64,000 nt of DNA from Roseimaritima ulvae (GCF_008065135.1 NZ_CP042914.1:3699404-3763403); one strand, 5' to 3'. Positions 6,074 to 57,848 are shown, numbered from the stretch's first letter. Notes: generated from the sequence alone by a model not told the origin. Numbers and translations: made by a program.

Positions 6074-7249
6074 ATGACATCTATGTGTATCCATCACTGC
6101 ATTCGACTTACGTTGCTGTTTGCTTGCCTGGTTCCCACACTACTGCTCTCGGGTACCGTCCATGGCGAGGACGCTGCTACGCATACTGCCGGCGAAACGA
6201 CGCCCGACCCGACGGCGGCGCTGATCCAGGCCGCCATCGACGACGGCCAAATGGCCGGGGCAGTGGTGATGATGTCGCAACAAGGAAAGCTGGTGTATTC
6301 CACCGCCATCGGCGACGCTCAGGTTGAACCGCAGCGCCGCCCGATGCGACTCGATACCGTGTTTGATCTGGCTTCGCTGACCAAGCCGGTCGCCACGGCC
6401 ACCTCGATCATGAATTTGGTTGATCAGGACAAGCTGGAACTGGATACCAAGATCGCCTCGCTGTTCCCGGAATTCGGTGAGCACGGCAAGCAGGACATTA
6501 CGGTCGCGGATCTGCTGCTGCACCGCGGCGGATTGATCGCCGATAACGCGCTGCGAGACTACGGCAACGACCAGCAAAACAACTGGGCGAATATTTGCCG
6601 ACTAAAGCCGTTGGCCGAACCGGGCGAACGGTTCATCTATTCGGACGTGGGCTTCATCGTGCTGGGCAAGGTGGTCGAAAAGGTCAGCGGACAACCGCTC
6701 GATCAGTTCGTCCGGCAGAATCTTTACGCGCCGCTGCAAATGACCGAAACCATGTACACTCCCTCCGCGTCGCTGCGGGCACGCGCCGCGGCGACTGAGA
6801 AGCAAGGGGACCAATGGTTGGTCGGTCGGGTGCATGATCCGCGAGCGGCCCGGATGAACGGAGTCGCCGGCCATGCCGGATTGTTTTCTACCGCCGCCGA
6901 CCTGATCCGCTTTGGCGAAGCGTTTTGCAATGGCGGAGCGACCGACGACGCCCGTATTCTCGGCACAGAAACCGTGGCCATGATGACGCAACCACGCGAG
7001 GTCCCCGGCGGCCAGCGAGCTTTCGGCTGGGACGTGCGTTCGCGGTATTCGTCCAACCGGCCCGAAGGTTTTTCCGAGGCAGCCTTTGGCCACGGCGGAT
7101 TCACCGGCACCGTGTTGTGGATCGACCCTCAGCAAGAGGTCGTGTTTGTCTTCCTCAGCAACCGCCTGCATCCCGACGGCAAGGGCAGCGTCAATAAACT
7201 CGCCGCCCAAGTAGCCGATCAATTGCTGGAGCGGTTTGTGCAGCCGTAG
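6074..7249 (+). CDS. Serine hydrolase of the class C beta-lactamase / PBP family, secreted
   Basis: It has a signal peptide, an SLTKPV (SxxK) active-site motif and the beta-lactamase fold signature GHGGFTG. Confidence 0.75.
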   Translation: MTSMCIHHCIRLTLLFACLVPTLLLSGTVHGEDAATHTAGETTPDPTAALIQAAIDDGQMAGAVVMMSQQGKLVYSTAIGDAQVEPQRRPMRLDTVFDLASLTKPVATATSIMNLVDQDKLELDTKIASLFPEFGEHGKQDITVADLLLHRGGLIADNALRDYGNDQQNNWANICRLKPLAEPGERFIYSDVGFIVLGKVVEKVSGQPLDQFVRQNLYAPLQMTETMYTPSASLRARAAATEKQGDQWLVGRVHDPRAARMNGVAGHAGLFSTAADLIRFGEAFCNGGATDDARILGTETVAMMTQPREVPGGQRAFGWDVRSRYSSNRPEGFSEAAFGHGGFTGTVLWIDPQQEVVFVFLSNRLHPDGKGSVNKLAAQVADQLLERFVQP

Positions 7250-7295
7250 CAAACGCACCAGTGTTTGAGAGTGGTTTCGCTGCGGAGAACGTGCC

Positions 7296-9922: not shown

Positions 9923-10429
9923 GTAGGAAGGTCCTTCTTTCGCTGTTCACGTGAGCGTGATCGGTTGGCAGATAGCAAAACCTACCCGCGCCCTAACAAC
10001 TGTCGGCTCGCAGCGGCGTTTTGCTGCAAGAAACGTGACAGCGCCGTACGAGCGGTACCGGCTGGCTCAAGTTGGCGAAACAAGTCCTCCTTTTCGGTGA
10101 CCGAATGTGTGCTGGTTGAGGCCCCTATAACGCCGGAACATCCGGTAAAGGCCTCAGCAAATTGTGTGAAAGTCTAACTCTTATTTCATGCCATCTGCCA
10201 TTAAAACCAGCAAAATTGGGGTTTCGTTACCGCAGCGGCAAACACAAGCCCGCTAGTGCCGCCTTAAGGGGGAACGGCAGCGGGCCGGCGAGGCTGCGGC
10301 TCGGCGTCGGCGAAATTTCGCCCGTGGATGTGTTTTTTCGCCCCACATGCAAGCAATCCAATCCGCTGGCATAATGTTCCCTTCCCGTTCCCCTGCTTCG
10401 CCTCATCAAACCCCCATTCGCAGATTCCC

Positions 10430-11507: not shown

Positions 11508-11573
11508 CGTAGCCGAACTCGCCAGAGTTTGGACGTTTCCCGGAGCCCCCAAAGCCTGGCGACTTCGGCTACC
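11508..11573. repeat. REP-B pair (one + copy, one - copy) downstream of purM
   Basis: The sequence is cgtagccgaactcgccagagtttggacg ... cctggcgacttcggctacc. Confidence 0.7.
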
Positions 11574-17269: not shown

Positions 17270-18430
17270 CTATTCGCTGGCGGGTTGGGCGGCGGGATAG
17301 GAGCCCAGGATATCCAATCGCATCGCCTGCTTCTTCAACGAGTCGATGGCGGCGGCGACCGGCGGATCGCTGCGGTGGCCTTCGCATTCGATAAAGAAGA
17401 AATACTCGGCGTTTTCGCCGACGATCGGAAACGATTCGATCCAGGTCAGGTTCAATCGGTTGTTTTTGAAAATCGCCATCGCGTCGGCCAGCGCTCCGGG
17501 TTTGTGTGCGACCTGAAGCAACATGGTCGTTTTGTCGCGCCCCGTGGCGTCTATGGTCTCGTTGCCGAGAACGGCAAACCGGGTCACGTTGTAGGGGCTG
17601 TCTTCGATGTTGGCATCGACCACGTCCAACCCGTATTGGCGACCGGCTTCGCGTCCGGCCACAGCGGCCACGCCCGGTTGCTCACTGGCAATGCGTGCCG
17701 CTTCGGTTGTACTGGCGACTTCCACAATTTGTGCCGTGGGTAGATGCCGCGCCAGCCAATGCCGACACTGCGAGAGGGCTTGCGGTTTGCTGCACACCTG
17801 CTTGATCGCTTCCCGCGGCGAACGCGACAAGAGGTTGTGATGAATCGGTAGAAACACTTCCCCGCAAATATGCACGCGATGTACGACAAACATCCCCAGC
17901 GTGTCCACGATGCGGCCATCGGTACTGTTCTCAATCGGCACGACTCCGCTGCGGCAGTCGCCGGCGACCACGCTTTCAAACACGGCTTCGATCGATTGCA
18001 CCGGGGCCAGCGCGGCGGCCGCGCCAAAGAAGCGGGTCGTAGCCATGTAGCTGTAGCTGTACTTGGGTCCCAAGAAGGCGACCCGTTGGTTCTCGCCGCC
18101 GCGAAGGCAAAAACTGGCTGCGTGCCGCAGCCAATCGCGGACCCCGGCTCGATCCAACGCGTCGGCATCGGCTGAGTCCGTAGCGGGAAGCATCTCCGCG
18201 AGCACTTGGTCGATGGCTTCGTTGGCACGGCTCATGCGGCCGATCAGCTCCGCCGGTGATTTCTGTAGGTCCGCCTGCACCACGGTCCGCCGCTGCCGCA
18301 GCAATTCAATTAATTGCCGGTCCAAACTGGCTAATTTGTCCGGTTTTGCGGACCGGTCCGGTGAGGCGGATGGATTCGGCGGCGGTGCATCGGTCACGGC
18401 GGTGGGTCCCTTCCCCTGGAGTGCTGTCAT
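17270..18430 (-). CDS. pheA: Bifunctional chorismate mutase / prephenate dehydratase PheA (CM + PDT + ACT domains)
   Basis: It has an N-terminal CM-like helix (LDRQLIELLRQRRTVVQAD), a PDT domain (RVAFLGPKYSYSYMA) and a C-terminal ACT-like region. Confidence 0.8.
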   Translation of the reverse strand: MTALQGKGPTAVTDAPPPNPSASPDRSAKPDKLASLDRQLIELLRQRRTVVQADLQKSPAELIGRMSRANEAIDQVLAEMLPATDSADADALDRAGVRDWLRHAASFCLRGGENQRVAFLGPKYSYSYMATTRFFGAAAALAPVQSIEAVFESVVAGDCRSGVVPIENSTDGRIVDTLGMFVVHRVHICGEVFLPIHHNLLSRSPREAIKQVCSKPQALSQCRHWLARHLPTAQIVEVASTTEAARIASEQPGVAAVAGREAGRQYGLDVVDANIEDSPYNVTRFAVLGNETIDATGRDKTTMLLQVAHKPGALADAMAIFKNNRLNLTWIESFPIVGENAEYFFFIECEGHRSDPPVAAAIDSLKKQAMRLDILGSYPAAQPASE

Positions 18431-18591
18431 TATGGCAAGTCGCCTGAAAACCCGGCTCGGGTGGAAATCCCATTCTGGCAGACAATGCCCGCTAGATTCT
18501 TGCCGAAGTCATTATTTGCAGTTTTGGAATATGCACAAGCCCTTAATGCAAAACGACTTATGTAAAACGGCAGTGCCGCCGGCAGCTTAAA

Positions 18592-18606
18592 TGGCACAGT
18601 TGTTGC
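18592..18606 (+). promoter_or_regulatory. Candidate sigma-54 (-24/-12) promoter TGGCAC-N5-TTGC, 76 nt upstream of the dnaK ATG
   Basis: The sequence is aaaTGGCACagttgTTGCCata. GG and GC are spaced exactly 12 nt apart, as in the RpoN consensus. Confidence 0.5.
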
Positions 18607-18681
18607 CATAGAGTGACTTTCGAAGAAACCGTTACACCTAACCGTTGGGGGACCGCCCCACATTACGCAGGAGAATGGACC

Positions 18682-20631
18682 ATGGCACAAGGTGAAAAAA
18701 TCATCGGGATCGACTTGGGCACGACCAACAGCGTTGTCGCTGTGATGGAAGGCAGTGAGCCCAAGGTGATTCCGAACCCGGAAGGCAATCGGCTGACCCC
18801 TAGTGTGGTCGCCTTTACCGACAACGCCGACACGATTGTGGGCGAGCCGGCACGGCGTCAGGCCGTGACCAACCCCACACGTACCGTCTACAGCGTGAAA
18901 CGCTTCATCGGTCGTCGACATAACGAAGTCGAAGGCGAAGAGAAGATGGTGCCCTATGGCGTCACCGGTGCGGCCGGCGAATACGTCAAAATTAAAGTGG
19001 GTGACAAAGAACACACGCCGCAAGAAATCTCGGCCAAAGTGCTCCGAAAACTCAAGGAGTCCGCTGAGTCGTACTTGGGGCACAAAGTCAACAAAGCCGT
19101 GATCACCGTTCCGGCTTATTTTAACGACAGCCAGCGACAAGCCACCAAAGATGCCGGGCAGATCGCCGGATTGGAAGTCGCGCGAATCATCAACGAACCG
19201 ACCGCCGCCGCCTTGGCGTACGGTTTGGACAAGAAGAAAGACGAAAAGATTGTCGTCTTCGACCTCGGGGGCGGTACCTTCGACGTCTCGGTGCTGGAAG
19301 TTGCCGATAGCGGTGATGACGATTCCAGCAGCCGTGTGTTCCAGGTGGTCAGCACCTCGGGCGATACGCACCTCGGTGGTGACGACTTCGACGAAGCGTT
19401 GATTCACCATGTGGCCGACAAATTCAAAGCCGAAAGCGGCGTCGATTTGCGTAGCGACCCGATGGCTCTGCAGCGTTTGCAGGAAGCCTGCGAGAAAGCC
19501 AAGAAAGAACTCAGCACGCTGCCGCAAACCGACATCAACCTGCCCTTCATCACGATGGACTCGGCCGGTCAGCCTAAGCACCTGACGATGTCGATCTCCC
19601 GCTCGACCTTTGAAGAGCTGATCGATGATCTGGTGCAACGCTGCAAGAAGCCGCTGATGCAGGCCCTGCAGGACGCCGGCATGCAACCTTCCGACATCGA
19701 TGAAATCGTGTTGGTCGGTGGTAGCACGCGAGTTCCCAAGGTGCGCGCCGTGGTTAAAGAAGTCTTTGGCAAGGAACCGCACCAGGGCGTCAACCCAGAC
19801 GAAGTGGTGGCCGTGGGCGCCGCGATCCAAGGGGCCGTGTTGGCCGGCGATCGTACCGACGTGCTGCTGCTGGACGTGACGCCGTTGACCCTGGGTATCG
19901 AAACCGAAGGCGGCGTGCTGACGCCCCTGGTCGAACGCAACACCACGGTCCCGGTCGAGAAGAAGAACGTGTTTAGTACGGCGGCCGACGGACAATCCGC
20001 GGTTACCGTGCGCGTCTTCCAGGGCGAGCGGAAAATGGCCAACGCCAACCGCCTGCTGGGTGAATTTAACCTCGAAGGCATTCCGCCGGCACCGCGTGGA
20101 ACCCCGCAGATCGAAGTCAAATTCGACATCGACCAAAACGGCATCCTGAGCGTTTCCGCGAAGGAACTCGGTACCGGTAAAGAAGCCTCGGTGACGATCA
20201 ACGAAGCCGCCGGGTTGGACGAATCGGAAATCGAGCAGATGCGCAAAGACGCGGAAGCCAACGCCGATGAAGACCGCCGTCAGTTCGAGTTGGCCGAAGC
20301 TCGCAACAAGGCCAACAACATGACCTATCAGTTGGAAAAACTGATGAAGGACAATGACGAGAAGTTGACCGATGACGACAAGGCACCGCTGGAACAGGCG
20401 ATCGAAAAGGTGAAGAAAGCCGCTGAAGGCGACGACACCGCTGCGATCAAGCAAGCGACCGACGAACTCGAAGCCGCTTCGCAAGCCTTCACCAAGGTGC
20501 TGTACGAAAAAGGCGGCAGCGAAACCGCTGGTGCCGAGGGCGGAGCGGCCGCAGCCGGAAGTGCCGCGGCAGCCGACGCCGATGGCGCCGACGACGACGC
20601 CATCGACGCCGAGTTCGAAGTCAAAGACTAA
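18682..20631 (+). CDS. dnaK: Chaperone DnaK (Hsp70)
   Basis: It has [18 protein letters not shown] and the Hsp70 signature. An AGGAGAA Shine-Dalgarno sequence lies 8 nt upstream of the ATG. Confidence 0.95.
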
Positions 20632-20659
20632 TCGTCCGACCTCGAATGGATTCAGCCAA

Positions 20660-20693
20660 CGCAGCCGCTCGGATGAGCGGCTGCGTTTTTTTG
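20660..20693 (+). terminator. Rho-independent terminator of dnaK
   Basis: The sequence is cgcagccgctc-ggat-gagcggctgcg followed by TTTTTTT. Confidence 0.8.
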
Positions 20694-20823
20694 TTGGTTG
20701 TTGGTTGTTGGTTGGGAGTTCTCGTTTAACCCGTAGCCGCAGGCGCCGGCGCATACGTCAACGGCCGCCGCGGGCCGCTCTCCGAACCGTGGCATCGAAC
20801 GCGGCGGGAAAATCTGAAATCTG

Positions 20824-20864
20824 CTGACTCTACCGGACGCGTACAAAGATTCCGGTAGAGTCAG
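20824..20864. other. 14-bp perfect inverted repeat (ctgactctaccgga ... tccggtagagtcag) immediately upstream of the microsatellite
   Basis: Read directly from the sequence. No T-run follows, so it is not a classic terminator. Confidence 0.6.
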
Positions 20865-20865
20865 G

Positions 20866-21054
20866 AAATCTCAAATCTCAAATCTCAAATCTCAAATCTC
20901 AAATCTCAGATCTGAGATCTCAGATCTGAGATCTCAGATCTCAGATCTCAGATCTCAGATCTCAGATCTCAGATCTCAGATCTCAGATCTCAGATCTCAA
21001 ATCCCAAATCCCAAATCCCAAATCTCAAATCCCAAATCCCAAATCCCAAATCCC
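20866..21054. repeat. Heptanucleotide microsatellite, about 27 units: (AAATCTC)5, (AGATCTG/AGATCTC)~14, (AAATCCC/AAATCTC)~8
   Basis: It is a perfect 7-bp periodicity over 189 bp. The central block is a run of overlapping BglII-type palindromes (agatct). Confidence 0.9.
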
Positions 21055-21062
21055 TCCAACAA

Positions 21063-21107
21063 CCAAACTCTGGCGAGTTCGGCTACGCCTTACCATTCGG
21101 CTACGCC
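21063..21107. repeat. REP-B copy plus a partial copy (- orientation)
   Basis: The sequence is ccaaactctggcgagttcggctacg ... ccattcggctacgcc. Confidence 0.65.
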
Positions 21108-21122
21108 TTACCAACCACCAAC

Positions 21123-21138
21123 TGGCACGCCACTTGCA
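21123..21138 (+). promoter_or_regulatory. Candidate sigma-54 (-24/-12) promoter TGGCAC-N5-TTGCA, 67 nt upstream of the clpB ATG
   Basis: The sequence is cTGGCACgccacTTGCAt, a perfect match to the core RpoN consensus. Confidence 0.5.
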
Positions 21139-21204
21139 TCTTCTTCTGTTCGCTTCCAGCCCTGCCAATTTCGGTAACGGCTCCCTACGATGAGGAACGA
21201 CTCC

Positions 21205-23886
21205 ATGGCTTTTCAATTCGATAAATTGACCGTCAAAGCTCAGGAAGCTGTGGCGGCCGCCCAGTCCAAATCCAGCTCCGCCGGCAACCCGGAAATGGAC
21301 CCTTTGCACTTGCTGCTGGCGCTGTTGGAACAGAACGATGGGATTGCCGGACCGCTGCTCAGTCGCACCGGAGCCGACGTTGCTCAACTGACCAGTTTGG
21401 CAACCGCTGAAATCGACAAGCTGCCCAAGGTGACCGGAGGTCGGCAGCCGCAGGTCGGCCCGGCGCTGCACCGGGTGCTTGAAGCGGCCGCCGAAAAATC
21501 CAAACAGATGAAGGACGAATTTGTCAGTAGCGAACATCTGTTGCTGGCGATGGCGGAAACCGACAACAAAGCCAAGAACTTGCTGCAACTGGTCGGCGTC
21601 GACGGTAACGATCTGTTGACCGCATTGGCACAGGTTCGCGGTTCAGCGCGCGTTACGGATCAGAACGCCGAAGACACCTATCAAGCTTTGCAGAAATACG
21701 GCATCGATCTGGTCGACCTGGCTCAGCAGGGCAAGCTGGATCCGGTGATCGGCCGTGACGATGAAATCCGCCGCGTGATCCAAGTCCTCTCGCGACGCAC
21801 CAAAAACAATCCGGTCCTGATCGGCCAACCCGGCGTCGGTAAGACGGCCATCGCCGAAGGTCTGGCGTTGCGAATCGTTGAAGGCGATGTGCCCAACAGC
21901 TTGAAGAACAAAAAGGTCGTGGCCCTGGATATGGGGGCCTTGGTTGCCGGTGCTAAATTCCGCGGCGACTTTGAAGAACGACTGAAATCCGTGCTGCGGG
22001 AAGTCAAAGACGCCGACGGCCAGGTGATCCTGTTTATCGACGAATTGCATCTGGTCGTGGGTGCGGGCAAAGCCGAAGGATCCGCGGATGCAGCTAACCT
22101 GCTGAAACCCGAGCTGGCTCGCGGCGTGCTTCGCTGCATCGGTGCCACCACGATGGACGAATACCGTCAGCACATCGAGAAAGATGCCGCGCTGGCTCGC
22201 CGCTTTCAACCGGTATATGTCGGCGAACCCAACGTTGAGGACACCATCGCCATCCTTCGCGGACTCAAACCCCGCTACGAAGCTCACCACGGCGTCCGCA
22301 TCACCGACAGCGCCATCGTAGCGGCGGCCGGTTTGTCGAATCGTTACATCACTGATCGCTTCCTGCCGGACAAAGCCATCGATTTGGTCGACGAAGCGGC
22401 CAGCCGGTTGGCGATGGAAAAAGAGAGCGTTCCCGAACCCATCGATCAGGTGCAACGCCGGATCCAACAACTGGAACTGGCCGATCGCCAATTAGCCGAC
22501 GAAGCCGACGCTTCGGCCGTGGCTCGACGCGATGCGATCCGCGAAGAAATGGAGACGCTGCGATCCGAATTGGCCAGCTTGCGCGAACAGTGGGAAGCCG
22601 AAAAGATGGGCTTGGACGACGTCCAGTCGCTGCGCAAAGAGTTGGAGCAGTTGGATCATCAGTTCCGCACGGAAGAATCCGAGTTGAGAAACCGTCAAGC
22701 CAGCGGCCAACCGGTTGCGGAAACCGAATACCAACGCTTGTTCGAACTGGACCAACAGCGACGCCAGCTAAACGCTCGGCTGGAAACGCTGGAAGATCAG
22801 GTTAAAGAACAGGACGACGATGGCGGGGAAGATGAAACCTCGGCCACGCGGCGACTGCTTCGCAAAGAGGTTACCGACGAGGAAATTGCCGAAGTCGTCA
22901 GCGCATGGACCGGCGTTCCGGTGCACCGCATGATGGAAGCCGAACGGGCCAAATTGCTGGTCATGGAAGAACGCTTGCATCAACGCGTGGTCGGCCAAGA
23001 CGAAGCGGTCACGGCGATCTCCGATGCCGTGCGTCGCAGCCGCAGTGGACTGCAAGACCCCAATCGACCCATCGGCTCGTTCCTGTTCCTGGGCCCCACC
23101 GGCGTCGGCAAAACCGAAGTCTGCAAAGCCCTGGCGCAGATCATGTTCGACGACGAATCCGCCATGGTGCGGATCGACATGAGCGAATTCATGGAACGTC
23201 ACAGCGTGGCCCGACTGATCGGTGCCCCTCCCGGATACGTTGGGTACGAAGAGGGCGGCAAGCTGACCGAAACGGTCCGGCGACGCCCCTACTGCGTTAT
23301 CCTGCTGGACGAAATGGAAAAGGCGCACCCCGACGTGTTCAACGTCTTGTTGCAGGTCCTGGACGATGGTCGCCTGACCGATGGACAGGGCCGCACCGTC
23401 GATTTCACCAACACCGTGATCGTGATGACCAGCAACGTCGGCAGTCAGGTGATCCAAAAGATCGCCTCCGAAGGCGGTACGCAAGACGAACTGCGGGAAG
23501 CCATCGAGGAACCATTGCGTTCGCGTTTCCTACCGGAGTTCCTCAACCGGATCGACGAAACCGTGGTCTTCCAACCTTTGCATCGGGACCAGATCCGCGA
23601 CATCGTGCGAATCCAACTGCGGCACTTGACCGAACGTTTGGAAGAGGCCGGGTTGAAGCTGGAAGTCACCGAAGCGGCGGTCCAACAGATCGCCAACGAG
23701 GGCTACGAACCGGCTTATGGAGCGAGACCGTTGAAACGGGTGATCCAACGCGAAGTCCAAAACCCCTTGGCTACCGCGCTGCTGCGTGAGTCGTACAAGG
23801 AAGGCACCACGATCGTGGTCGACTACGCCGACGACGCCTTCACGTTCACGGCGCAAGAAGCCCCGGTCGAAGCGACGGCAAGCTAA
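21205..23886 (+). CDS. clpB: Chaperone ClpB (AAA+ disaggregase, two NBDs with coiled-coil middle domain). The start at MAFQFDKLT (21205) is preferred over the ORF-track 21190.
   Basis: It has both Walker A motifs ([16 protein letters not shown]), sensor and arginine-finger motifs, and an M-domain coiled coil. Confidence 0.95.
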
Positions 23887-23906
23887 AGTAGCATGGGCCC
23901 CTGGCC

Positions 23907-25437
23907 CTGCTGATTACCCAATTTTTAGTGAACGGATGATTTTGGAGGCCCGAAGGCTTGCCAGGCTAAGGCGAAGTCCATCATTCGGCGAGTTCCACGC
24001 CAGATCGTTTCCATTCCTGGTGGGCCGTCGTGTTTGCGTCCATTGTAGCCACCTAGCTGAGCAAGCACGGGGATGAATTGCGAGAGTTCGGGAGCTGATT
24101 TCGGCGGCTCCGATTCCTTAGCGACTTTCCAAACCGACTTCCATTCAGCGTCGCTGAATACAACATCGCATGGCAACTCAGGACACTCGCGTCCGAGGAA
24201 TGTGATAAACATGATCCGCCATGCAACAACTTTGTAAAACATCAACGCGCGAATCAGCCTGGCTTTGGTTTTCAGCTGGATGTCCTCAACGCGGCATCCC
24301 GATTTGAGTACTCGGAAGAACATTTCGACAGGCCACCGTGCGACGTAGTAGTCAACAATCCGCAATACATCTCGGTAATCGTCAATCGGAAGGGAGCTCA
24401 ATAGCAGCCAGTTCAGGTCGGTTCCATCCTGCGGCCCGTCGACCTCTTGAACGAGCACTACGCTGAGCGTCACTTCCGGAATAGCCGAGCGTCGTGCATG
24501 GGGCGGTTTTATCTTTGTGCGAATGGCACGGATTTCTAGAGTGGCCATTCGGGCGGCACGTTGGGCAGTGGCTGGCAACTCGACTTGCCGCGTTGTAACG
24601 AGATCTGTTTTTGCAACTTCGGATCGGATCTTCTTGTAGCTGTCGCCACCGGCTTCGTCGTCTTTTTCAGGCAAACACCGGACTTGCTTGCTGCGAATCA
24701 CGAAGTCGGCCGGATTATCGTGCTGTTCAGCTTCAACAAAGATGTCGTAGATGTCACCTTCGCGATCCGCTAAAGAAACAACTTGAGTCTCCGGGCACTG
24801 TGAGGCCAATTCACAGCATCGGCGATAGCCTTGAAGCCATCGAAAACTTTCCTTCTCTTCGATCGGATCACTCTTCCGTTGACTGCCCTTTCCTAGGCTG
24901 TCTTCACTACGATCAAAGAACTCCACATCCAGCACGCCCAGACAAAGCTTCTCGGGCGTAAAGGCTACAGAGCTATGGTCATACAATCCCCGTCGGTCTG
25001 CCATGTTTAGGCACTTCACATCGTCGGGGGCGTGACCGTTGAAGTCTAACTCCGTCGTGTCTTGGGCCACGCAAACCACCTTCTGGGACTTGATCCGCTT
25101 GATCGTCGCCCGACGGTGCGCAGCAAGAATTTCCTGGCTATCGGCCTTGGGGTTATCCAAGAACCGGTAAGCCCCTTTCGCAGCACACCATTTATCGCAA
25201 GCCGCATTAATGCTCGCTTGAGGATTGGCGAAGAGGGCCTGGAGAAGTTCTTTCGATCGATCGTTACGGCTTTTATGGCCGAAGTCGATGGTGTCAAATT
25301 CGTGCTCAATCGTGGCTGGTTCAATGGTCATCAATCGCGCTCCTATCGTGTAAAAATAGGTAACACGAGGCGCAAAAAGCGTGCCGAAATCGCGGTGTTT
25401 TTTTGCGATTTCAAAAAAAGAATTGGGTAATCAGCAG
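23907..25437 (-). mobile_element. Intact IS4-family insertion sequence (~1531 bp). It has 16-bp perfect terminal inverted repeats CTGCTGATTACCCAAT and is inserted into a REP-A copy with a ~10-bp target duplication (GCCCCTGGCC).
   Basis: IRL sits at 23907-23922 and IRR (reverse complement) at 25422-25437. The left flank is gtagcatgggcccctggcc and the right flank gcccctggcccgtgt, which together reconstruct one REP-A unit plus a duplicated segment. Confidence 0.8.
23925..25334 (-). CDS. IS4-family DDE transposase (469 aa, apparently intact)
   Basis: The C-terminal YYVARWPVEMFFRVLK gives the IS4-family Y-(2)-R-(3)-E-(6)-K signature. A DDE-type acidic residue context lies upstream. Confidence 0.8.
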   Translation of the reverse strand: MMTIEPATIEHEFDTIDFGHKSRNDRSKELLQALFANPQASINAACDKWCAAKGAYRFLDNPKADSQEILAAHRRATIKRIKSQKVVCVAQDTTELDFNGHAPDDVKCLNMADRRGLYDHSSVAFTPEKLCLGVLDVEFFDRSEDSLGKGSQRKSDPIEEKESFRWLQGYRRCCELASQCPETQVVSLADREGDIYDIFVEAEQHDNPADFVIRSKQVRCLPEKDDEAGGDSYKKIRSEVAKTDLVTTRQVELPATAQRAARMATLEIRAIRTKIKPPHARRSAIPEVTLSVVLVQEVDGPQDGTDLNWLLLSSLPIDDYRDVLRIVDYYVARWPVEMFFRVLKSGCRVEDIQLKTKARLIRALMFYKVVAWRIMFITFLGRECPELPCDVVFSDAEWKSVWKVAKESEPPKSAPELSQFIPVLAQLGGYNGRKHDGPPGMETIWRGTRRMMDFALAWQAFGPPKSSVH

Positions 25438-25575
25438 GCCCCTGGCCCGTGTAAAAAAGACGTCTCTCCTTCTCCAGAACACGGGCCGGGGACCCATGCT
25501 ACGGTTTCCAGAACACGGGCCGGGGACCCATGCTACGGCTTCCAGAACACGGGCCGGGGACCCATGCTACGGGGA
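25438..25575. repeat. REP-A remnant at the IS junction plus three tandem REP-A copies (ccagaacacgggccggggacccatgctacgg x3). The last GTAG supplies the TAG stop of the giant ATPase gene.
   Basis: Read directly. The spacers between copies (ttccagaa) are identical, so this is not a CRISPR array. Confidence 0.75.
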
Positions 25576-28500
25576 ATCGGAGGCGTCTTCTAGTTCATTG
25601 CGGATGCGATCGTAATCCGCCAGCGTGCTTTCAATCAGCTTTTTCAGGTCATCCAGCTGCCGGCCGTTTTCACCCGCTTCCAACATCAATGGCCGCATCC
25701 ATTCTTGCATCAGATGGAACTGGCCGCGGACCAAGTCCAGCATCACCCGCGGCACCTTGTGCTGTACGATCACATTCTGATCCGGTGGGTTGGATGCCTG
25801 GAATTCGCTGATCTGTTGCAGCTGCTTCGACGTTTTGTTGATGGCTTCGGTCAGTTGCTGTCCGGCGTTCGAAAAACTCTGCCGCAGGCCGTCGACGCGT
25901 TCATCCATTCGAACTTCGGCGGAATCGTCGTGCGCTGCCACCGCTCGCGCGATGACTTGTCGGATGGATTCCAGTCCGTCGCGCATCGAACCCAATTGAC
26001 GCATCAGCTGACCGGCCTGGTCGTCAGAATCCAGGCCCGCCATTTTGACACTTTCCACATAGGCGTACTTGATCGCTTCCCAACGCTCTTTCTCTTCCTT
26101 GGTCAGCAACCCATTCAGCTCTTTGAACTTCAGCACGTTGGATTCATTGTCGGTCGTCAACGTCTGAGCGTCTTGTTCGTAGTTGCCGATGATCAAAGCC
26201 TGCAATTCATCCTCGTTCATCACCGCCACCACGCGTTCTGCGATGCGATTCATATTGCGGTAGCTGCCCTGTAATTTAAATGGCGGTTCGGTGCGATAGG
26301 CATCGGCTTGGGCAGCGGAGCGAATGTATTGACGATTGACCTTCAACACACAATCGCGGACCTTCAACAGCTTCTTCAGAACTTCGAACATCTCCCGCAC
26401 TTGGTCGGCCGAGAAACTGCTTTCCATCTCCAGCCCGTCCAGCGAATTGCGTTCGGCGGCGTGAATCAGAGCACGGGCGTCGCTGGGCGAAGCGGAAGCC
26501 AAGGGAGCCAAGACGGTGTTGCTGGTCAGGCAGTTTTCCAAGTAGCTGATTTCGAAGGCGTCGCGTGATTCGCCAATGATCTCGCCCAAGTTGTACACGT
26601 CGGCACGGTTGGACAACATGTCGGGGATCTGGAACCGGGCGCCGCTTTCGGTATACGGATTACCGGCCATCACCACCGCGACACGACGGCCTCGCAGGTC
26701 AAACGTCCGTGTCCGTCCGTTACGAACACCTTCGATTTTCCGGGTCGCGTCGCACAGCGAAATAAACTTCTGCAGGAACTCGGGATGCGTGTGCTGGATG
26801 TCGTCCAAGTACAGCAACACGTTGTCGCCCATCTCCAACGCCAGATTTAATCGTTCGACTTCTTCTCGAGCCGCCGCGTTGGGAGCTTCGTCCGGATCGA
26901 GCGACGTGACGTTATGGCCGATCGCGGGACCGTTGATTTTCATGAATACCAATCCCAATCGATTGGCGATGTATTCCATCAACGTTGTTTTACCGTAACC
27001 GGGTGGACTGATCAGCAGCAACAAGCCCATGCGGTCGGTGCGTTTACCTTCGCCGGTAACGCCGATTTGTTTGGCGAGGTTATCGCCGATCAGCGGCAGG
27101 TAGACTTCATCCAATAGTTGATTGCGGACAAAGCTGGTCAACACCCGCGGGCGGAACTCTTCCAGCCGCATGTCGTCTCGAGCTTCGTCGACCAATCGCA
27201 GCTTGGTGGTTTGCAAACGCTCGTAGCGCGGCACTACTTCGCTGCGGTACCGTCCCACGCGTTCCAGCAGTTCGTGGTACTGGACCGTTAGTTGCCCTTT
27301 TTGAATCCGCGGGTGAGCTCCGGCCAGACCTTCAAGGCGAACGGCGATGTTGACGTCCTGAGCGACAAATTCCTGGTCATCCGCAAACGCGATCCGTATG
27401 GCCAATTCGTCGCGGTAGGCCTCCACCGGATCCAGCGCATCGGTCTGTGGATGAGCGGCCAAAAACGCGTCGGCCCAGTTGCGTCCCAACACAAACGCCT
27501 GCAGCGGATGATCCGCATTCGCTTCGATGGACTGTTCCAACAAGCGACGTCGATCGATGGCGGGCAAGCTGTCGTTGAAAGCGGTTAACAGGGCCGCGAC
27601 ACGCCCGCTGCAGGTAAGGTGATTGGCGGGATCGACCAATTGATCAAACAGGTACGCCGCAATTTCTTCGGCCCCGACTTGCGGGAACAGCTCGGTCCAA
27701 GACAGCGACGAGGCGTCCCGGGGCGTGTGTTCGGCGGTCGGATCGTTCAACAACCGCACCAATCGTTGACGGAATTCGCGAGCCGGTTGAGCGTTGGGAT
27801 AGGCGCGCGCCAGATTAGCGAAACCACCGATCCACTCGGTCAACTGCTCGCGGAGCTGCGGATCGAGCAACCGCAGCCACCACAGCCACGCGGCAGCGCG
27901 GACCGTGGGCCGATGACGCAGCAGGCCGATTTTGTTGTCGATATCAATCAGCGTTGTCAGGATCGCCAACGCGTCGTGATCATGAACGCCCTTGGCATAA
28001 CCTTCGGCAAAGCGCCCGCTGATTTGCTGCCGCAGCCAATTGTCATCCACGGCCGGACGAGCCTGTCGCTCAATCGCTCGCCACTGCTGAAACAAATCCA
28101 CGGCAAGGTATTCGGCTCGGTATAGTTCATTGTTTTCATTCGCCAAGTCCTGCGTCCACAAGTCCTCAGCGGCTTGCAAATCTTCATGCACCAGAGGTTC
28201 AAAAAACTGCGTGCCCGTCAGGTGCAAACAGATCTGTTGGTCGCGCAATACCGTGGTCAGATCCAGCTTTTGCGTGTTGACTGCAAACCGATGCCGCCCC
28301 AGCCGGATCGTATCGCCACCATCTTCGTACAGATCCTGGCGATCCTTCAACTGACGCAACGAATCTTCGCGGATCGTTTTCAGCCGGCTTTGGATATCTT
28401 CCACGCGGACGGCATCATCCAATTCCATCAGATTGGTGACGATGCCGCGGATCTTGTCGACCATCAAGTCGGCGGCGAAATAGGCCAAAATCTCATCCGC

Positions 28501-30840
28501 CGATTCCATGCTGCGGGCCCGTGATTCGATTCCCGTCAAGATGCGATCGGCCGCGTTGGCCAAGGATTCGGCGCGGCGATTCCGCTTTTCGACCAGCTGG
28601 ACTTTGCGGCTTTCAAAGGCGTTGTACAACTCTTCGCGGCGTTCGGTCAGTTGCTCGATGAACTCGTCAAATTCGGCGAACCGTCCTTCCAGTTCTTCCA
28701 GCTGGACCATTACTTTGGTCAGATACTGTTCACACTTTTCGGGCGTGTCACAGATATCCAAATAGCCAGCAACGGTTTGTTCCAGCAATTTCAGTTGCGA
28801 GGCGAATTCCGCTCGGCCTTCGCCGCTGGCCAATTCACTGGTGCGGGCTTTCAAACGGCTGCGGACGCGGTTCAGCGAGGCAAAAACGTCGCTGATCTGA
28901 TCGATGATCTGGGTGCGTTTGGTGGTGTCATCGATTTGCAGATTACTGACCGTTTCGGTCAACAGTTCCAATTGCCCCGAGGCTTCGTCGATATGTTCGT
29001 CCAGCTTTTTGGCATCCGCAACCGTAGCCACCGATTCGACCTGTTGCTCGGTATCGAGCACGCGTTGCCGGTAAGGTTGCAGGGCATCGTCTTGCAGTAG
29101 GAAATCCACGCAGCGACGGCTGACGCGTTCGCTGCGTTCGGCGATATCGGTCTCCAGTGCATCGATGCGTTCCCCATCGACGTACCGCAACTCCCGCAAA
29201 CCGATGGCGTGGCCGCGTTGGGTACGCAGCTGAGCCAGGGCATCGACAAAGGCGTCTATGTTGTCGAACCGCGAACGTTCGATCGACTTGATAAGCGTTT
29301 CCACGGCCTGTTCGACCGCGGATGTCTTTTCCTCGGTGTCACGGCGGACGCGGACCACACGTTCGAATTCTTCGATGGCTGCGTTTGCGGTATCACGGAT
29401 GGAACGCAGCGGTTCATCCAGACGCTGGGTTTCGGGTTTATCCAACCAGAAATAGCTGTCCAGGACATCGCCCGACTTCTTGGCCAAATCAACGTACAAG
29501 CCGTCGTAGCTGTCGTCCTTGTCGATCAACTGCATGATTTCGCTGCATTCGGCCATGCCGCGAACCAGTTCTTTGTTGCCGATTTTGAACAGCAGCGAGT
29601 CGGTGTTGCTGTGGGCCACGTAGTCGGGGCCGGTAAACGGCGTCTGCCATAATTGAATGGCGTGATGTTTCTGCGGCTGTTCCTGCGCCCGGAAGCAAAC
29701 CATCAGACCATCGTCGAAAAACGTCTGTCCGTTACAGATCAGCGGCGTATCGACCTCTTGGCGAATCAGGTTGTAACGCAGTTGGACGTAGGTGCCGTGG
29801 GCATGATTATAAAACAGGTACAGGAAGTCTTCGCCGTTGCTGGCCGCAATCGATCGCGCATAAACCATCTCCGACAGCCCATGGTCGAAGCGCTTAAAAT
29901 CCCCGGTTTGCAGATAGTAGCCGCCGGAAAAAATGATGCCGTGGTCATCGGGCAACAGGATGCAGGCGTGTTGGATATCATCCAGCCGCATCGCCTTTTG
30001 AATCTTGGCGTTAAACAGCAGGTAGCGAGCATCCCGTTCTTGATAGGGATGCATCTTCAGCAGGATCAGGTTTCCCAGTGTGGCCCAGTGGACTTCCGCG
30101 TCGTCCAGCGTCTGATCGGGGTTGTCGACCGGTTCGGCGTAGATGCCTTTCCCGGACGCCGTGTTATCCTCCACTTTGACCGTCAGGTCACCGCCCACCG
30201 TTTCCACGAACACGCGATCTTCAATGGAGATGTGCGGGTGTTCGCCATAGCGGTGTTGATCCCGCGTGGCTCGCTGCCACACGAATTCATGCTGCGAAGG
30301 GTAGACAACCTCGTGATCGCTGCGGTTGTCAATGTATTCAAAGCGGCTGCCCACACGCCGCCATTTAAAGGTCTTGATGTCCGACTCGGACTTGCCGACC
30401 TGGAACACCATATAGACAAACGGTCCGGCGGTGAAGAACTTTGCGAAAGTTGTGTTGCGATAGAATCGGTACAGTTCGTGAAAATCGCGTTCAAAGCGAT
30501 CGTCGTCGATCATCTCCTTCAGCGGGGCCGCGTGGAAGGTGCGATCTTTCAGGCAGTAAACGCCAAACACATCTTCCAGAGTGGTTTCGGTCTTCAAGCC
30601 GAACTGGACGTTGTAGCCGAACAGAAACTGGTTACCGATGGCGATCAAATCCCGCGGCACACAATTGTGCTCGGTCGTTATCCGCTCGGTGGCCAGCAGC
30701 TGTGTTTGGATATTGCCAAACGTCGCTGAGCGTTCCTCGTTGAGCGTTTCGATCCGGCTACGAAGCTTGCCCGCCGCATCACGCAAGCGGTTGCGAAGCA
30801 CCTCGTAGGTACCGGTTGTCATCGAAGTATCGGCAGTCAA
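25567..30840 (-). CDS. Giant (1757 aa) P-loop ATPase. The AAA+ core (Walker A LLLISPPGYGKTTLMEYIANRL, Walker B NVLLYLDDIQ) sits at ~residues 1115-1300. It is preceded by ~1100 aa including a long coiled-coil region and followed by ~450 aa of unknown function.
   Basis: Walker A and B motifs are read directly. The PPGxGKTT form resembles the RuvB/clamp-loader clade. No transmembrane segment is seen. It is the last gene of the YqiJ-like / flotillin operon. Confidence 0.7.
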   Translation of the reverse strand: MTADTSMTTGTYEVLRNRLRDAAGKLRSRIETLNEERSATFGNIQTQLLATERITTEHNCVPRDLIAIGNQFLFGYNVQFGLKTETTLEDVFGVYCLKDRTFHAAPLKEMIDDDRFERDFHELYRFYRNTTFAKFFTAGPFVYMVFQVGKSESDIKTFKWRRVGSRFEYIDNRSDHEVVYPSQHEFVWQRATRDQHRYGEHPHISIEDRVFVETVGGDLTVKVEDNTASGKGIYAEPVDNPDQTLDDAEVHWATLGNLILLKMHPYQERDARYLLFNAKIQKAMRLDDIQHACILLPDDHGIIFSGGYYLQTGDFKRFDHGLSEMVYARSIAASNGEDFLYLFYNHAHGTYVQLRYNLIRQEVDTPLICNGQTFFDDGLMVCFRAQEQPQKHHAIQLWQTPFTGPDYVAHSNTDSLLFKIGNKELVRGMAECSEIMQLIDKDDSYDGLYVDLAKKSGDVLDSYFWLDKPETQRLDEPLRSIRDTANAAIEEFERVVRVRRDTEEKTSAVEQAVETLIKSIERSRFDNIDAFVDALAQLRTQRGHAIGLRELRYVDGERIDALETDIAERSERVSRRCVDFLLQDDALQPYRQRVLDTEQQVESVATVADAKKLDEHIDEASGQLELLTETVSNLQIDDTTKRTQIIDQISDVFASLNRVRSRLKARTSELASGEGRAEFASQLKLLEQTVAGYLDICDTPEKCEQYLTKVMVQLEELEGRFAEFDEFIEQLTERREELYNAFESRKVQLVEKRNRRAESLANAADRILTGIESRARSMESADEILAYFAADLMVDKIRGIVTNLMELDDAVRVEDIQSRLKTIREDSLRQLKDRQDLYEDGGDTIRLGRHRFAVNTQKLDLTTVLRDQQICLHLTGTQFFEPLVHEDLQAAEDLWTQDLANENNELYRAEYLAVDLFQQWRAIERQARPAVDDNWLRQQISGRFAEGYAKGVHDHDALAILTTLIDIDNKIGLLRHRPTVRAAAWLWWLRLLDPQLREQLTEWIGGFANLARAYPNAQPAREFRQRLVRLLNDPTAEHTPRDASSLSWTELFPQVGAEEIAAYLFDQLVDPANHLTCSGRVAALLTAFNDSLPAIDRRRLLEQSIEANADHPLQAFVLGRNWADAFLAAHPQTDALDPVEAYRDELAIRIAFADDQEFVAQDVNIAVRLEGLAGAHPRIQKGQLTVQYHELLERVGRYRSEVVPRYERLQTTKLRLVDEARDDMRLEEFRPRVLTSFVRNQLLDEVYLPLIGDNLAKQIGVTGEGKRTDRMGLLLLISPPGYGKTTLMEYIANRLGLVFMKINGPAIGHNVTSLDPDEAPNAAAREEVERLNLALEMGDNVLLYLDDIQHTHPEFLQKFISLCDATRKIEGVRNGRTRTFDLRGRRVAVVMAGNPYTESGARFQIPDMLSNRADVYNLGEIIGESRDAFEISYLENCLTSNTVLAPLASASPSDARALIHAAERNSLDGLEMESSFSADQVREMFEVLKKLLKVRDCVLKVNRQYIRSAAQADAYRTEPPFKLQGSYRNMNRIAERVVAVMNEDELQALIIGNYEQDAQTLTTDNESNVLKFKELNGLLTKEEKERWEAIKYAYVESVKMAGLDSDDQAGQLMRQLGSMRDGLESIRQVIARAVAAHDDSAEVRMDERVDGLRQSFSNAGQQLTEAINKTSKQLQQISEFQASNPPDQNVIVQHKVPRVMLDLVRGQFHLMQEWMRPLMLEAGENGRQLDDLKKLIESTLADYDRIRNELEDASDSP

Positions 30841-34006: not shown

Positions 34007-34096
34007 CTGCACTATCGGTCTGCCGGGTGTGTGATATTCTGCATCCTCGTTTTATCCGTTTTTAGCGCTCCGACGAGCGAAGCTGCGAGAACCGCC

Positions 34097-34591
34097 ATGA
34101 AAATCACCTGGAAAGAACTGACGTTAAATCCCGACGACATGGATTTTGACGAACTGCTGAGCGATTGGCGGTGGTTGGTGCCCGAGTCGATGGTGCCGAT
34201 CGTGGTCACCGCCCTGGGCGACCTGTTCCTCCAGGACGACGACAACCGCGTGCATTGGTTGGACACTGGAGCGGGAACGCTGGAGCAGGTGGCGTCCAGT
34301 TTGCCGGAATTCGAACAGAAGATCGTCCAGCCCGAAAATGCGGATCGCTGGTTCCTGCCCCAGCTGATCGGCGACCTGATCGACGATGAAAAACGCTTGG
34401 GACCCGGACAATGCTACAGCTGGGACGTGCCCCCGGGACTGAGCGGTGAAGTCTGCGTCGACAACGTCGAACCCAAAGACATCCGCGTGCATTTCTCGCT
34501 GTTCGGTCAGATTTTTCAGCAAACCAAAGATCTGCCCGAAGGCACGCCGATCACCGAGATCGTGATCGAAGACGACGAGCCCTCAGAGTAG
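34097..34591 (+). CDS. DUF1851 / Tdi1-like (SMI1-KNR4-related) immunity-type protein. The ORF track starts at 34031, but the MKITWKEL start is preferred.
   Basis: The pattern ...VVTALGDLFLQDDDNRVHWLDTGAGTLEQVASSLPEFEQ... matches the GDlfl..dG.v.flD...G.le.ia.sfeeF core I associate with DUF1851 (C-terminal domain of T6SS immunity Tdi1). Confidence 0.5.
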   Translation: MKITWKELTLNPDDMDFDELLSDWRWLVPESMVPIVVTALGDLFLQDDDNRVHWLDTGAGTLEQVASSLPEFEQKIVQPENADRWFLPQLIGDLIDDEKRLGPGQCYSWDVPPGLSGEVCVDNVEPKDIRVHFSLFGQIFQQTKDLPEGTPITEIVIEDDEPSE

Positions 34592-56241: not shown

Positions 56242-56438
56242 TGTGCGCGGTCGTCACGTGTTGTTGGGCGACGGGGTGCACATTGTAACATCGACAGATT
56301 CGTTCCGACCGGGGCAGATGATTTTAGTCTTCTAAACAGCGCCGTTTCGTTAACGCTCAGGGTTTGCCGCCCGCACCGCCGAAACCTACCGATGAACAGT
56401 CTGTTTGCGATCATTGGTTATTTTTGGAGCTGCGTTGG

Positions 56439-57848
56439 ATGACGGTCATCGCCCCGGTTTATTGGCACGAGGGAATGTTTCTCCGCCCCCAGCACTTTCA
56501 GGTCGCCGAACGCAACTTAGAAAGCCAGATCCGCGACAACGTGCAGTGGAATCAGCACTACAGTTGGGGGCTGCGGCGGTTTCAATTGGACGCCGACGCA
56601 CTGGCCAACCATCGCGTGGTGATCTCGGACTTAGCCCTACGCATGCGCGACGGCACGATCGTGTCTTGTCCCGAGATGTGTCAGCTGCCGGAATTGGATC
56701 TGCGTCAAAGCCTTAGCGGGACCCGAGCGTTGACGGTGTTTGCCGCCGTCCCCAAACCCTCGGTGACTCAAAATGCAGACGAAGATCGGGACAGGTATCG
56801 TATCGAAACGCTCGACCTGCAGGACCAAAATACCGGCCAGAACGCTCGTCCGATTCAAGTCCGGCGGCTGAACCTGCGGCTGCTGACCGACGCCGACGAC
56901 CACGCTGGCTTTGCCACTATGCCGCTGATGCGAGTTCGCGGCGCCGATCGCGCAGGCGGAGCGCCGGAACTGGACCGCACCTATATCCCGCCCTTATTGG
57001 CGGTCGACGCTTGGAAGACGCTGGAACAAGAGATCGTGCGGCCCGTGTTCGACCGGATCGGCAAGAAGCTGGAATTGGTTTCCAATCAGGTGATCTCACG
57101 AGGCATCACGTTCGATTCCAGTTCCCAAGGCGACCGTGTCATCTTGGAACAGATGCGGGTTATGAACGAGACGTACGCGGAATTGAGCGTACGAGCGCTG
57201 ATGCCGGGAATGCATCCGATCGACGTGTTCCGCCATCTGTTGAACTTCGTTGGACGGATGGCCGTGTTCACGCCGGCCCGACGCGTCCCGGAGCTGCCCA
57301 AGTACGATCATGACGATCTGGGGCAATGTTTTTGGGCCGCGCGGCGACTGGTCGACGGCGTGCTGGACGCGGTTACCGAACCGGAGTTCTGTGAGCGAGC
57401 TTTTGTTGGCGCAGGGCAGAGGGTGCAGGTAGCGTTGGAGCCGGCGTGGTTGGAACCCGGTCAGCGAATGTTTGTCGCCGTCACATCCAACTTGCCCACC
57501 GAACAAACACGTCAGCTGGTAGAGCGGCGTTTGGACATGAAAATCGGTGCCGGCAGCACGGTCGACGAATTGTATCGGTTGGGACGCGCAGGGTTGCAGT
57601 TCGACCACCAAGACCACCCGCCACGCTGCCTACCGCTGCGACCAGGCCGCGTGTTCTTTGGGATCGATAACTCGCACAGCGAAGACCAATGGGAATCGGT
57701 GCAACGAGAGTTGGCCTTGGCGGTGCGATTTAACGAAAATCTGATCGCCGGCGACGTCCAGGGACAACACGCCATCGGAATCACGGTTGATGGCCATGGG
57801 GCGACGTTGGAGTTTGTGTTGTACGTCGTCCCCCCCTCGGCGATCTAG
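56439..57848 (+). CDS. tssK: Type VI secretion baseplate subunit TssK-like protein (DUF876/VasE family). No other tss genes are present in the window.
   Basis: The N-terminus (VYWHEGMFLRPQHFQ) matches the near-invariant TssK start (W-x-EGMFL-x-PQHFQQ). The internal RLNLRLL...MPLMRV block matches the conserved TssK shoulder motif. The length (~469 aa) is typical. Confidence 0.6.
   Translation: MTVIAPVYWHEGMFLRPQHFQVAERNLESQIRDNVQWNQHYSWGLRRFQLDADALANHRVVISDLALRMRDGTIVSCPEMCQLPELDLRQSLSGTRALTVFAAVPKPSVTQNADEDRDRYRIETLDLQDQNTGQNARPIQVRRLNLRLLTDADDHAGFATMPLMRVRGADRAGGAPELDRTYIPPLLAVDAWKTLEQEIVRPVFDRIGKKLELVSNQVISRGITFDSSSQGDRVILEQMRVMNETYAELSVRALMPGMHPIDVFRHLLNFVGRMAVFTPARRVPELPKYDHDDLGQCFWAARRLVDGVLDAVTEPEFCERAFVGAGQRVQVALEPAWLEPGQRMFVAVTSNLPTEQTRQLVERRLDMKIGAGSTVDELYRLGRAGLQFDHQDHPPRCLPLRPGRVFFGIDNSHSEDQWESVQRELALAVRFNENLIAGDVQGQHAIGITVDGHGATLEFVLYVVPPSAI

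Follow-up and report, generated by a model that had tools for sequence, protein, structure and literature searches.

Textbook heat-shock control relies on sigma-32 or on repressors such as HrcA. The dnaK locus of Roseimaritima ulvae raises the question of which signals govern the core chaperone genes of this bacterium. The locus lies in a 64,000-nucleotide stretch of the genome (NZ_CP042914.1, hereafter called the window), in which the Pfam domains DUF1501 and PSCyt2/PSD1 were found, both planctomycete markers. The features of the dnaK-clpB region are collected in Table 1. LWSJ01000007.1, from assembly GCA_001642915.1, codes for a DnaK protein identical to that of the window, and the closest dnaK locus in our genome collection is that of a Roseimaritima MAG (L009), with 96% identity between the DnaK proteins.

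Table 1. Features of the dnaK-clpB region, with positions counted from the first nucleotide of the window.
Feature	Position	Strand	Description
Prephenate dehydratase gene	17270-18430	-	Divergent from dnaK
Distal UAS-like palindrome	18425-18437	.	TGTCATTATGGCA, one mismatch to TGYCAAWWTGRCA
Proximal, weaker UAS-like site	18467-18479	.	TCCCATTCTGGCA, two mismatches to TGYCAAWWTGRCA
Putative sigma-54 core promoter of dnaK	18592-18606	+	TGGCACagttgTTGC; based on sequence, window statistics and conservation at 19/19 planctomycete dnaK loci
Predicted initiation region and ~64-nt dnaK 5' leader	18607-18681	+	From the usual sigma-54 geometry
Predicted dnaK transcription start	~18617-18619	+	11-13 nt past the -12 GC
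dnaK (Hsp70)	18682-20631	+	649 aa; Pfam HSP70, E=4.5e-248
Intrinsic terminator of dnaK	20658-20687	+	13-bp stem followed by a T-run
Putative second sigma-54 core promoter, upstream of clpB	21123-21137	+	TGGCACgccacTTGC then A; exact TGGCAC-N5-TTGC
Predicted clpB transcription start	~21148-21150	+	From the position of the sigma-54 core
clpB disaggregase gene	21190-23886	+	Pfam Clp_N, AAA, AAA_lid_9, AAA_2, ClpB_D2-small

Promoter signals upstream of dnaK

A preliminary description of this DNA had reported neither a CIRCE element nor an obvious sigma-32 element upstream of dnaK, and our searches bear this out, since the matches found are no better than those in shuffled sequences. No match to CIRCE (TTAGCACTC-N9-GAGTGCTAA) with up to five mismatches is present anywhere in the 64 kb of the window, and the best match upstream of dnaK or clpB (9/18) was reached by 200/200 shuffles. 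For sigma-32 (CTTGAAA-N11-16-CCCCATNT), the best match is 9/14 in both upstream regions, a score also attained in 181/200 and 198/200 shuffles, respectively, and no sigma-32-like element of the window is conserved in the other dnaK loci. The best matches to HAIR (CTTGAGT-N7-ACTCAAG), 9-10/14 in both upstream regions, were equalled in 77/200 and 39/200 shuffles. A search for sigma-70-like promoters in the 18380-21260 region found none.

The intergenic DNA upstream of dnaK harbours a -24/-12 element on the coding strand of the gene. Direct reading of the window gives aaaTGGCACagttgTTGCCat for this motif in its context and aaTGGCACagttgTTGCCat for positions 18590-18609. The canonical sigma-54 element is TGGCACG-N4-TTGCW. 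The -24 block TGGCAC (18592-18597) and the -12 block TTGC (18603-18606) provide all 10 specified bases of TGGCAC-N5-TTGC, and the nucleotides flanking the -12 block make it TTGCC, as against TTGCA/T in the canonical form, a departure that counts against the sigma-54 reading. A sigma-54-like element with correct GG-N10-GC spacing had been described 76 nt upstream of dnaK; its position agrees with our reading, as 76 nt separate the end of the motif from the ATG at 18682 and exactly 10 nt lie between GG (18593-18594) and GC (18605-18606). A Shine-Dalgarno sequence, AGGAGAA, is found near 18670 in the dnaK leader. The predicted leader also contains a direct repeat, with two copies of AACCGTT at 18628-18648.

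Only two exact matches to TGGCAC-N5-TTGC exist on both strands of the window, namely that upstream of dnaK and one at 21123-21137, for a mean expectation of 0.14 in dinucleotide-preserving shuffles, none of which (0/100) reaches two. Both copies are intergenic and co-oriented with heat-shock genes, dnaK and clpB. The earlier argument that the motif is too long to have occurred by chance in front of two such genes is therefore upheld by these numbers. With one mismatch allowed, nine matches are found for 6.6 expected, an unremarkable count, so that the signal resides in the exact matches and in their placement. Among the looser matches, those at 10026, 16463 and 60872 were rejected as further sigma-54 sites as their GG doublet is broken, that at 18223 as it is antisense within a coding region, and that at 11568 as no co-oriented gene lies downstream; two more are located at 25372, within an insertion sequence (IS) element, and at 45557.

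We gathered 80 dnaK loci on the basis of DnaK protein similarity alone, and their upstream DNA is thus an unbiased sample. Each of the 19 clearly planctomycete loci of this set (L001-L019) has the element 90-230 nt 5' of the DnaK match and on the coding strand, in 14 cases as an exact copy and in 5 with one mismatch. The 205 kb of these planctomycete loci contain 15 exact matches on both strands, 14 of which precede dnaK and one of which, in L009, precedes clpB, for a chance expectation that we estimate at ~0.4. A position matrix of 18 non-redundant promoters, from the window and 17 loci, reads T15 G18 G18 C17 A18 C17 (G13/A4) ... T18 T18 G18 C18. Seven bases (G, G, A, T, T, G and C) are the same in 18/18 promoters, each of the two Cs of TGGCAC is found in 17/18, and the 5-nt spacer is variable; this matrix matches the canonical sigma-54 element. 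The core -24/-12 element alone was also found upstream of dnaK in loci from Verrucomicrobiota, Kiritimatiellia, Hydrogenedentota and others, and it is absent upstream of dnaK in the deltaproteobacterial, Syntrophales and NC10 loci. With its occurrence at every planctomycete dnaK locus of the set, its invariant blocks on either side of a variable spacer and the palindromes upstream of it (see below), the element is very likely a functional sigma-54 promoter of dnaK.

A candidate enhancer, its putative activator and the associated genes

The sigma-54 holoenzyme forms a closed complex with its promoters and does not open DNA unaided, so that an AAA+ enhancer-binding protein (EBP) should be needed for transcription from the dnaK element. 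Enhancers of this kind typically lie 80-200 bp 5' of the promoter, and their usual layout consists of two sites approximately four helical turns apart, located 100-170 bp 5' of the -24/-12 element. By aligning the upstream regions on the -24 element, we found a recurrent 13-bp palindrome of consensus TGYCAAWWTGRCA, resembling an upstream activating sequence (UAS) and exemplified by TGTCAAAATGGCA, TGCCAATTTGGCA and TGTCAATTTGACA, located 100-170 nt before the -24 element. Allowing one mismatch at most, we found 18 matches to this consensus in 181 kb of planctomycete loci, and 17 of them are located in the 450 bp preceding dnaK, a region that makes up 8.3 kb of this DNA. Their distances from the T of the -24 block cluster at -103 to -124 and -154 to -167, and two sites are found in other Pirellulaceae loci too. 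Combined with the promoter, the palindrome is also present upstream of dnaK in one Latescibacter locus and two Calditrichota loci of our genome set.

In the window, the distal palindrome, which starts at -167 relative to the T of the -24 block, overlaps with the start codon, at 18430, of the prephenate dehydratase gene, which is divergent from dnaK; the proximal palindrome, at -124, is 42 bp away from the distal one. Both are unchanged in L009, and the DNA between and around them has diverged. It is reasonably likely that the two palindromes are the binding sites of the cognate EBP, judging from their spacing and conservation. The TGGCA half-site of the distal palindrome is the same pentamer as that found in the TGGCAC of the -24 block, which may be a coincidence or may reflect some interplay, e.g. 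the sigma-54 holoenzyme sampling the enhancer.

To collect other genes preceded by both elements, we scanned a metagenome collection with a composite pattern (palindrome, N88-115, TGGCAC-N5-TTGC), which yielded at least 120 loci. Of the 120 listed, 105 could be assessed and 15 have too little downstream sequence. Chaperone genes lie downstream of the composite site in 84 of the 105 assessable loci (80%) among the matches listed, with 58 loci for DnaK, 18 for Cpn60/GroEL, frequently with a gap that would fit groES, 7 for Hsp20 and one for Cpn10/GroES. The other downstream genes among these matches code for single-domain receiver proteins (four by Pfam count, three of them individually confirmed, in L095, L138 and L139), sigma-70-family proteins (two loci, e.g. 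L127, with a 246-aa protein harbouring regions 2, 3 and 4) and, for the rest, miscellaneous or unknown proteins. No clpB gene was found downstream of a composite site among the matches listed. The dnaK matches are partly expected, the pattern having been built from the promoters of this gene; those upstream of groEL, groES and hsp20 provide independent support, at the sequence level, for a regulon. The presence of the module before response-regulator and sigma-70-family genes hints at feedback or at a sigma cascade within this regulon.

Fifty-five of the DnaK proteins recovered among the matches listed were long enough to be classified. Twenty are closest to planctomycete references, and 33 are closest to a single Ignavibacteria reference, with 64-73% identity, which tentatively suggests that they belong to genomes of the FCB group. 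The proposal that RpoN and an EBP control the chaperone regulon is supported as firmly as sequence comparison permits: the -24/-12 element is conserved upstream of dnaK, and the composite site marks dnaK, groEL/groES and hsp20 in metagenomes. The clpB site, also invoked in its favour, is less general.

No rpoN or EBP gene was detected by Pfam scans of the 39 ORFs of the 64-kb window; its sole Sigma54_activat match, a weak AAA+ cross-match inside ClpB, was discarded. The Pirellulaceae loci likewise have no EBP gene at 5 kb or less from dnaK. In other lineages, a gene for a REC-AAA+(GAFTGA)-HTH protein directly precedes dnaK in L023 and L078, with a sigma-54 element in the intervening gap, and an EBP gene of the same architecture is found ~1 kb upstream of dnaK in L042. 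In two Planctomycetota MAGs (L033 and L038), one gene separates the EBP gene from dnaK. L023, L033 and L038 have TGCCAT-type half-sites in their upstream regions. In view of these EBP genes next to dnaK in other lineages, the activator is most likely an NtrC-type response-regulator EBP, whose input might be a kinase, titration by chaperones or direct sensing of temperature.

These elements can be assembled into a model. Sigma-54 (RpoN) RNA polymerase would bind the element at 18592-18606 to transcribe dnaK. An EBP dimer or higher oligomer would bind TGTCATTATGGCA (18425-18437) and TCCCATTCTGGCA (18467-18479), loop over about 110-170 bp of comparatively AT-rich DNA to reach the promoter and, upon protein unfolding or a temperature rise, hydrolyse ATP to open it. 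The dnaK transcript would run from near 18618 to the terminator at 20658-20687, and the second core promoter at 21123-21137 would drive clpB. From these sequence patterns we infer that, in Roseimaritima ulvae, the promoter depends on RpoN, the palindrome is bound by an EBP, transcription begins at the predicted site and expression is inducible by heat. As the same module precedes dnaK, groES/groEL and hsp20 in other planctomycetes and in FCB-group-like bacteria, it appears to hold the place of sigma-32 or HrcA/CIRCE. The broader proposal, that one dedicated NtrC-type EBP acting on TGYCA-N3-TGRCA together with sigma-54 is the primary heat-shock switch for dnaK, groESL and hsp20 in Planctomycetota and in FCB-group lineages (Calditrichota, Latescibacterota and Ignavibacteria/Bacteroidota-like bacteria), seems to us evenly poised between right and wrong.

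The probable clpB promoter and the dnaK-clpB gap

The second exact element reads TGGCACgccacTTGCA and has all 10 specified bases of TGGCAC-N5-TTGC. It ends 52 nt before the start of the clpB ORF at 21190 and 67 nt before the likelier start codon, ATG 21205, which gives a protein of 893 aa, the length also called in the public assembly. The dnaK-clpB gene order is kept across Planctomycetes, and clpB closely follows dnaK in most relatives, without an exact -24/-12 element. Among the loci compared, the exact clpB promoter is found in the window and in L009 only; degenerate counterparts, TGGCCCaggagTTGCA, CGGCGCgctagTTGCA and CGGCGCagattTTGCT, are located ~45 nt upstream of clpB in the Rubripirellula-like loci L003, L004 and L005, and the remaining loci have no counterpart. 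In both the window and L009, the DNA between the dnaK stop codon and the -24 block (~490 bp in the window) contains no match to the UAS consensus with up to three mismatches and no TGNCA-N3-TGNCA. The clpB site of the preliminary description is thus confirmed as an exact element upstream of clpB, with a distribution limited to the window and its closest relative and with no detectable UAS. It is probably a functional sigma-54 core promoter, although the missing UAS, the absence of clpB among the composite matches listed and the lack of an exact element in most relatives weigh against the sigma-54 model, as do the two mismatches of the proximal palindrome of dnaK. Possibilities for its activation include the dnaK enhancer 2.7 kb away, an EBP acting from solution and a site that we do not recognise.

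The DNA between the two genes is rich in repeats. An array of 26.7 copies of a heptamer (AAATCTC, AGATCTC and AAATCCC variants, partly self-complementary) occupies positions 20866-21052, in the gap that separates the terminator of dnaK from the clpB promoter. Immediately before it is a perfect 14-bp hairpin, ctgactctaccgga...tccggtagagtcag (~20824-20864), and an 18-nt direct repeat, TTCGGCTACGCCTTACCA, present in two copies at 21078-21113, abuts the -24 element of clpB. L009 has arrays at the same place (~7000-7260) built of other units (AAAGGGAC, AAATCTG and AAATCTC). By sequence comparison, the repeats of the gap are a hypervariable, fast-evolving microsatellite directly 5' of a sigma-54 promoter. 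Rfam searches for structured RNAs upstream of dnaK and clpB returned only sub-threshold miRNA-like matches on the palindromic heptamer array, and they were dismissed.

An IS element (23900-25440) lies just downstream of clpB, with terminal inverted repeats CTGCTGATTACCCAATT and a Tn5/IS4-type transposase gene on the minus strand (23925-25334). Within the IS element, 38 nt before the start of the transposase gene, is a sigma-54-like motif with one mismatch, CGGCACgctttTTGC (minus strand, 25386-25372), which could be due to chance. A 30-nt element, GTAGCATGGGTCCCCGGCCCGTGTTCTGGA, is present in three tandem copies on the minus strand at 25480-25570, with a related copy at 23888-23905 after clpB; these repeats flanking the IS element look like a REP-like extragenic repeat or a preferred insertion target. 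A gene for a 1757-aa protein adjoins the IS element (25567-30840, minus strand). This protein harbours DUF3686 (E=5e-189, annotated 'ATPase involved in DNA repair'), DUF7902 and a C-terminal AAA domain. Farther away, the window encodes a protein with a Tdi1-like T6SS immunity domain (34031-34591) and a T6SS TssK/VasE-family protein (Pfam T6SS_VasE, E=1.6e-76; 56364-57848).

Alternative readings and comparison with known systems

Of the readings that compete with ours, the one that fares best takes the sigma-54 promoter as real and considers it as one of two layers. Sigma-54 and its EBP would set basal or other stress-dependent expression, and the main heat signal would come through a downstream operator, an RNA element of the leader or a second promoter. 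The 75-nt leader after the -12 block is almost the same in the window as in L009, with about 4-5 differences, and the upstream spacer has diverged; however, this conservation is weak evidence, because the two sequences are only 8% divergent overall. Several Pirellulaceae leaders harbour a palindrome, TGaCGAAAtCGaCA, ~25 nt downstream of the -12 block, which is not evident in the window, and the leader corresponds to no Rfam family. The composite matches upstream of two sigma-70-family and three to four receiver genes, which hint at a cascade, would also fit. On balance, we find this two-layer arrangement unlikely. The leader palindrome itself was found ~20-40 nt downstream of the dnaK -12 block in L001-L008 and L013 (Novipirellula and Rubripirellula-like), and it is perfect in L005 (TGTCGAAAACGACA). 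It might act as an operator downstream of the promoter or fold into an RNA hairpin.

The 18592-18606 region might instead be the operator of a dimeric repressor or activator, for example a repressor of the CIRCE- or HAIR-binding type, with a sigma-70-family promoter nearby. In the window, aTGGCAcagttgtTGCCAt is indeed a perfect 6-bp inverted repeat, ATGGCA-N7-TGCCAT, which is retained in L009. In other planctomycete dnaK loci, however, the element reads CTGGCACGCTCTTTGCTTT, TTGGCACGGGCTTTGCATT or CTGGCACAGGCTTTGCGAT, and the palindromic flanks are not kept; on the 3' side, the other genomes have TTGCT, TTGCA or TTGCG rather than TGCCA. Nor is the motif accompanied by a sigma-70-like, sigma-32-like, CIRCE or HAIR element. 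This asymmetric conservation, with TGGCAC and TTGC maintained and their flanks not, indicates recognition by sigma-54 and not a symmetric operator. We therefore rejected the palindromic operator, which we regard as very improbable.

Least probable of all, and effectively refuted already by the comparative data, is the idea that the two matches arose by chance in a 60% GC genome and that unrecognised sigma-70-family or ECF promoters drive dnaK and clpB: loose matches are common (nine for 6.6 expected), planctomycetes have many ECF sigma factors (PMC2754498) and our promoter searches covered sigma-70-like and sigma-32 elements, but two exact matches stand against 0.14 expected with no shuffle in 100 reaching that number, the element is conserved at 19/19 loci picked without reference to DNA motifs, and all 15 exact matches in these loci precede dnaK or clpB.

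We thus favour the sigma-54 promoter, whose basic prediction has precedent. In what follows, COG0542 is taken to be the group that includes ClpB. An in silico study (PMC12316311, PLoS One 2025) found sigma-54 promoters enriched at DnaK, DnaJ, GrpE, GroEL, GroES and IbpA, and also at COG0542, COG0466 and COG1066, using class-specific PWMs; the enrichment was observed in Planctomycetia, less in Phycisphaerae, and also in Bacteroidota. That work addresses PWM enrichment at the level of COGs and mentions no UAS, dedicated EBP or Roseimaritima, whereas we describe promoters locus by locus, a palindromic UAS and the association of both with dnaK, groESL and hsp20. Sigma-54 wiring of chaperone genes was therefore already predicted (PMC12316311), and the window is a further instance of it, with a value that is confirmatory and lies in the mechanistic detail. 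What is added is the candidate enhancer palindrome, the finding that enhancer and promoter together mark dnaK, groESL and hsp20, and their spread beyond Planctomycetota.

In the related planctomycete R. baltica, heat induces dnaK, clpB, groEL, grpE, dnaJ and hsp20, and the genome has an rpoN gene (RB6491), whose transcript level stays the same on heat shock (PMC2754498). The unchanged rpoN transcript is compatible with control at the level of the EBP, to which it lends no support. Our literature search on Planctomycetes and Bacteroidetes found no experimental report of sigma-54/rpoN-dependent heat shock, and for no planctomycete did it find an experimental start site or EBP binding for a sigma-54 heat-shock promoter.

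Core chaperones seem to be placed behind sigma-54 in Planctomycetes and apparently in many FCB-group bacteria. If this is confirmed, the sensor of temperature or of unfolded proteins would be the EBP, or its kinase or chaperone partner, and the promoter at 18592-18606 and the candidate enhancer at 18425-18479 provide handles for finding it. As a highly specific predictor of heat-shock genes in these phyla, the composite motif can also be used for genome annotation.

Several known systems share parts of this arrangement. In Myxococcus xanthus, HsfA/HsfB reportedly control lonD, a sigma-54-dependent heat-shock gene, in work attributed to Ueki and Inouye in 2002. As with lonD, the present system combines a heat-shock gene, a -24/-12 promoter and, as we propose, an NtrC-type response-regulator EBP bound upstream, and the EBPs whose genes neighbour dnaK in L023, L042 and L078 share the REC-AAA+-HTH organisation of the M. 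xanthus system. The M. xanthus target is a protease gene, whereas here the core dnaK/groESL/hsp20 set is concerned. Sigma-54 stress promoters are also found in Escherichia coli, at pspA, with PspF, and as an internal promoter at ibpB. The likeness is in the use, proposed here, of sigma-54 and an EBP at stress or small-heat-shock genes; however, the E. coli promoters are accessory to the sigma-32 regulon, and here the sigma-54 element appears to be the sole recognisable dnaK promoter.

The enhancers of NtrC and LuxO are bound by the Fis-type HTH dimers of these EBPs, and the LuxO site is TTGCA-N3-TGCAA. Like them, TGYCAAWWTGRCA is a 13-bp palindrome of 5-3-5 organisation, usually in two copies ~100-200 bp upstream, but the half-site of the candidate UAS is TGYCA and that of LuxO is TTGCA. 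The classical sigma-32, HrcA/CIRCE and HspR/HAIR systems have the same targets (dnaK, clpB, groESL and hsp20), and their DNA signatures are absent upstream of dnaK and clpB in the window. The logic proposed for this locus is activator-dependent, i.e. positive and ATP-driven, in contrast with the sigma replacement or derepression of those systems. If the dedicated-EBP switch proves true, it would represent a third, activator-driven paradigm of heat-shock control beside sigma-32 and the HrcA/HspR/CtsR repressors.
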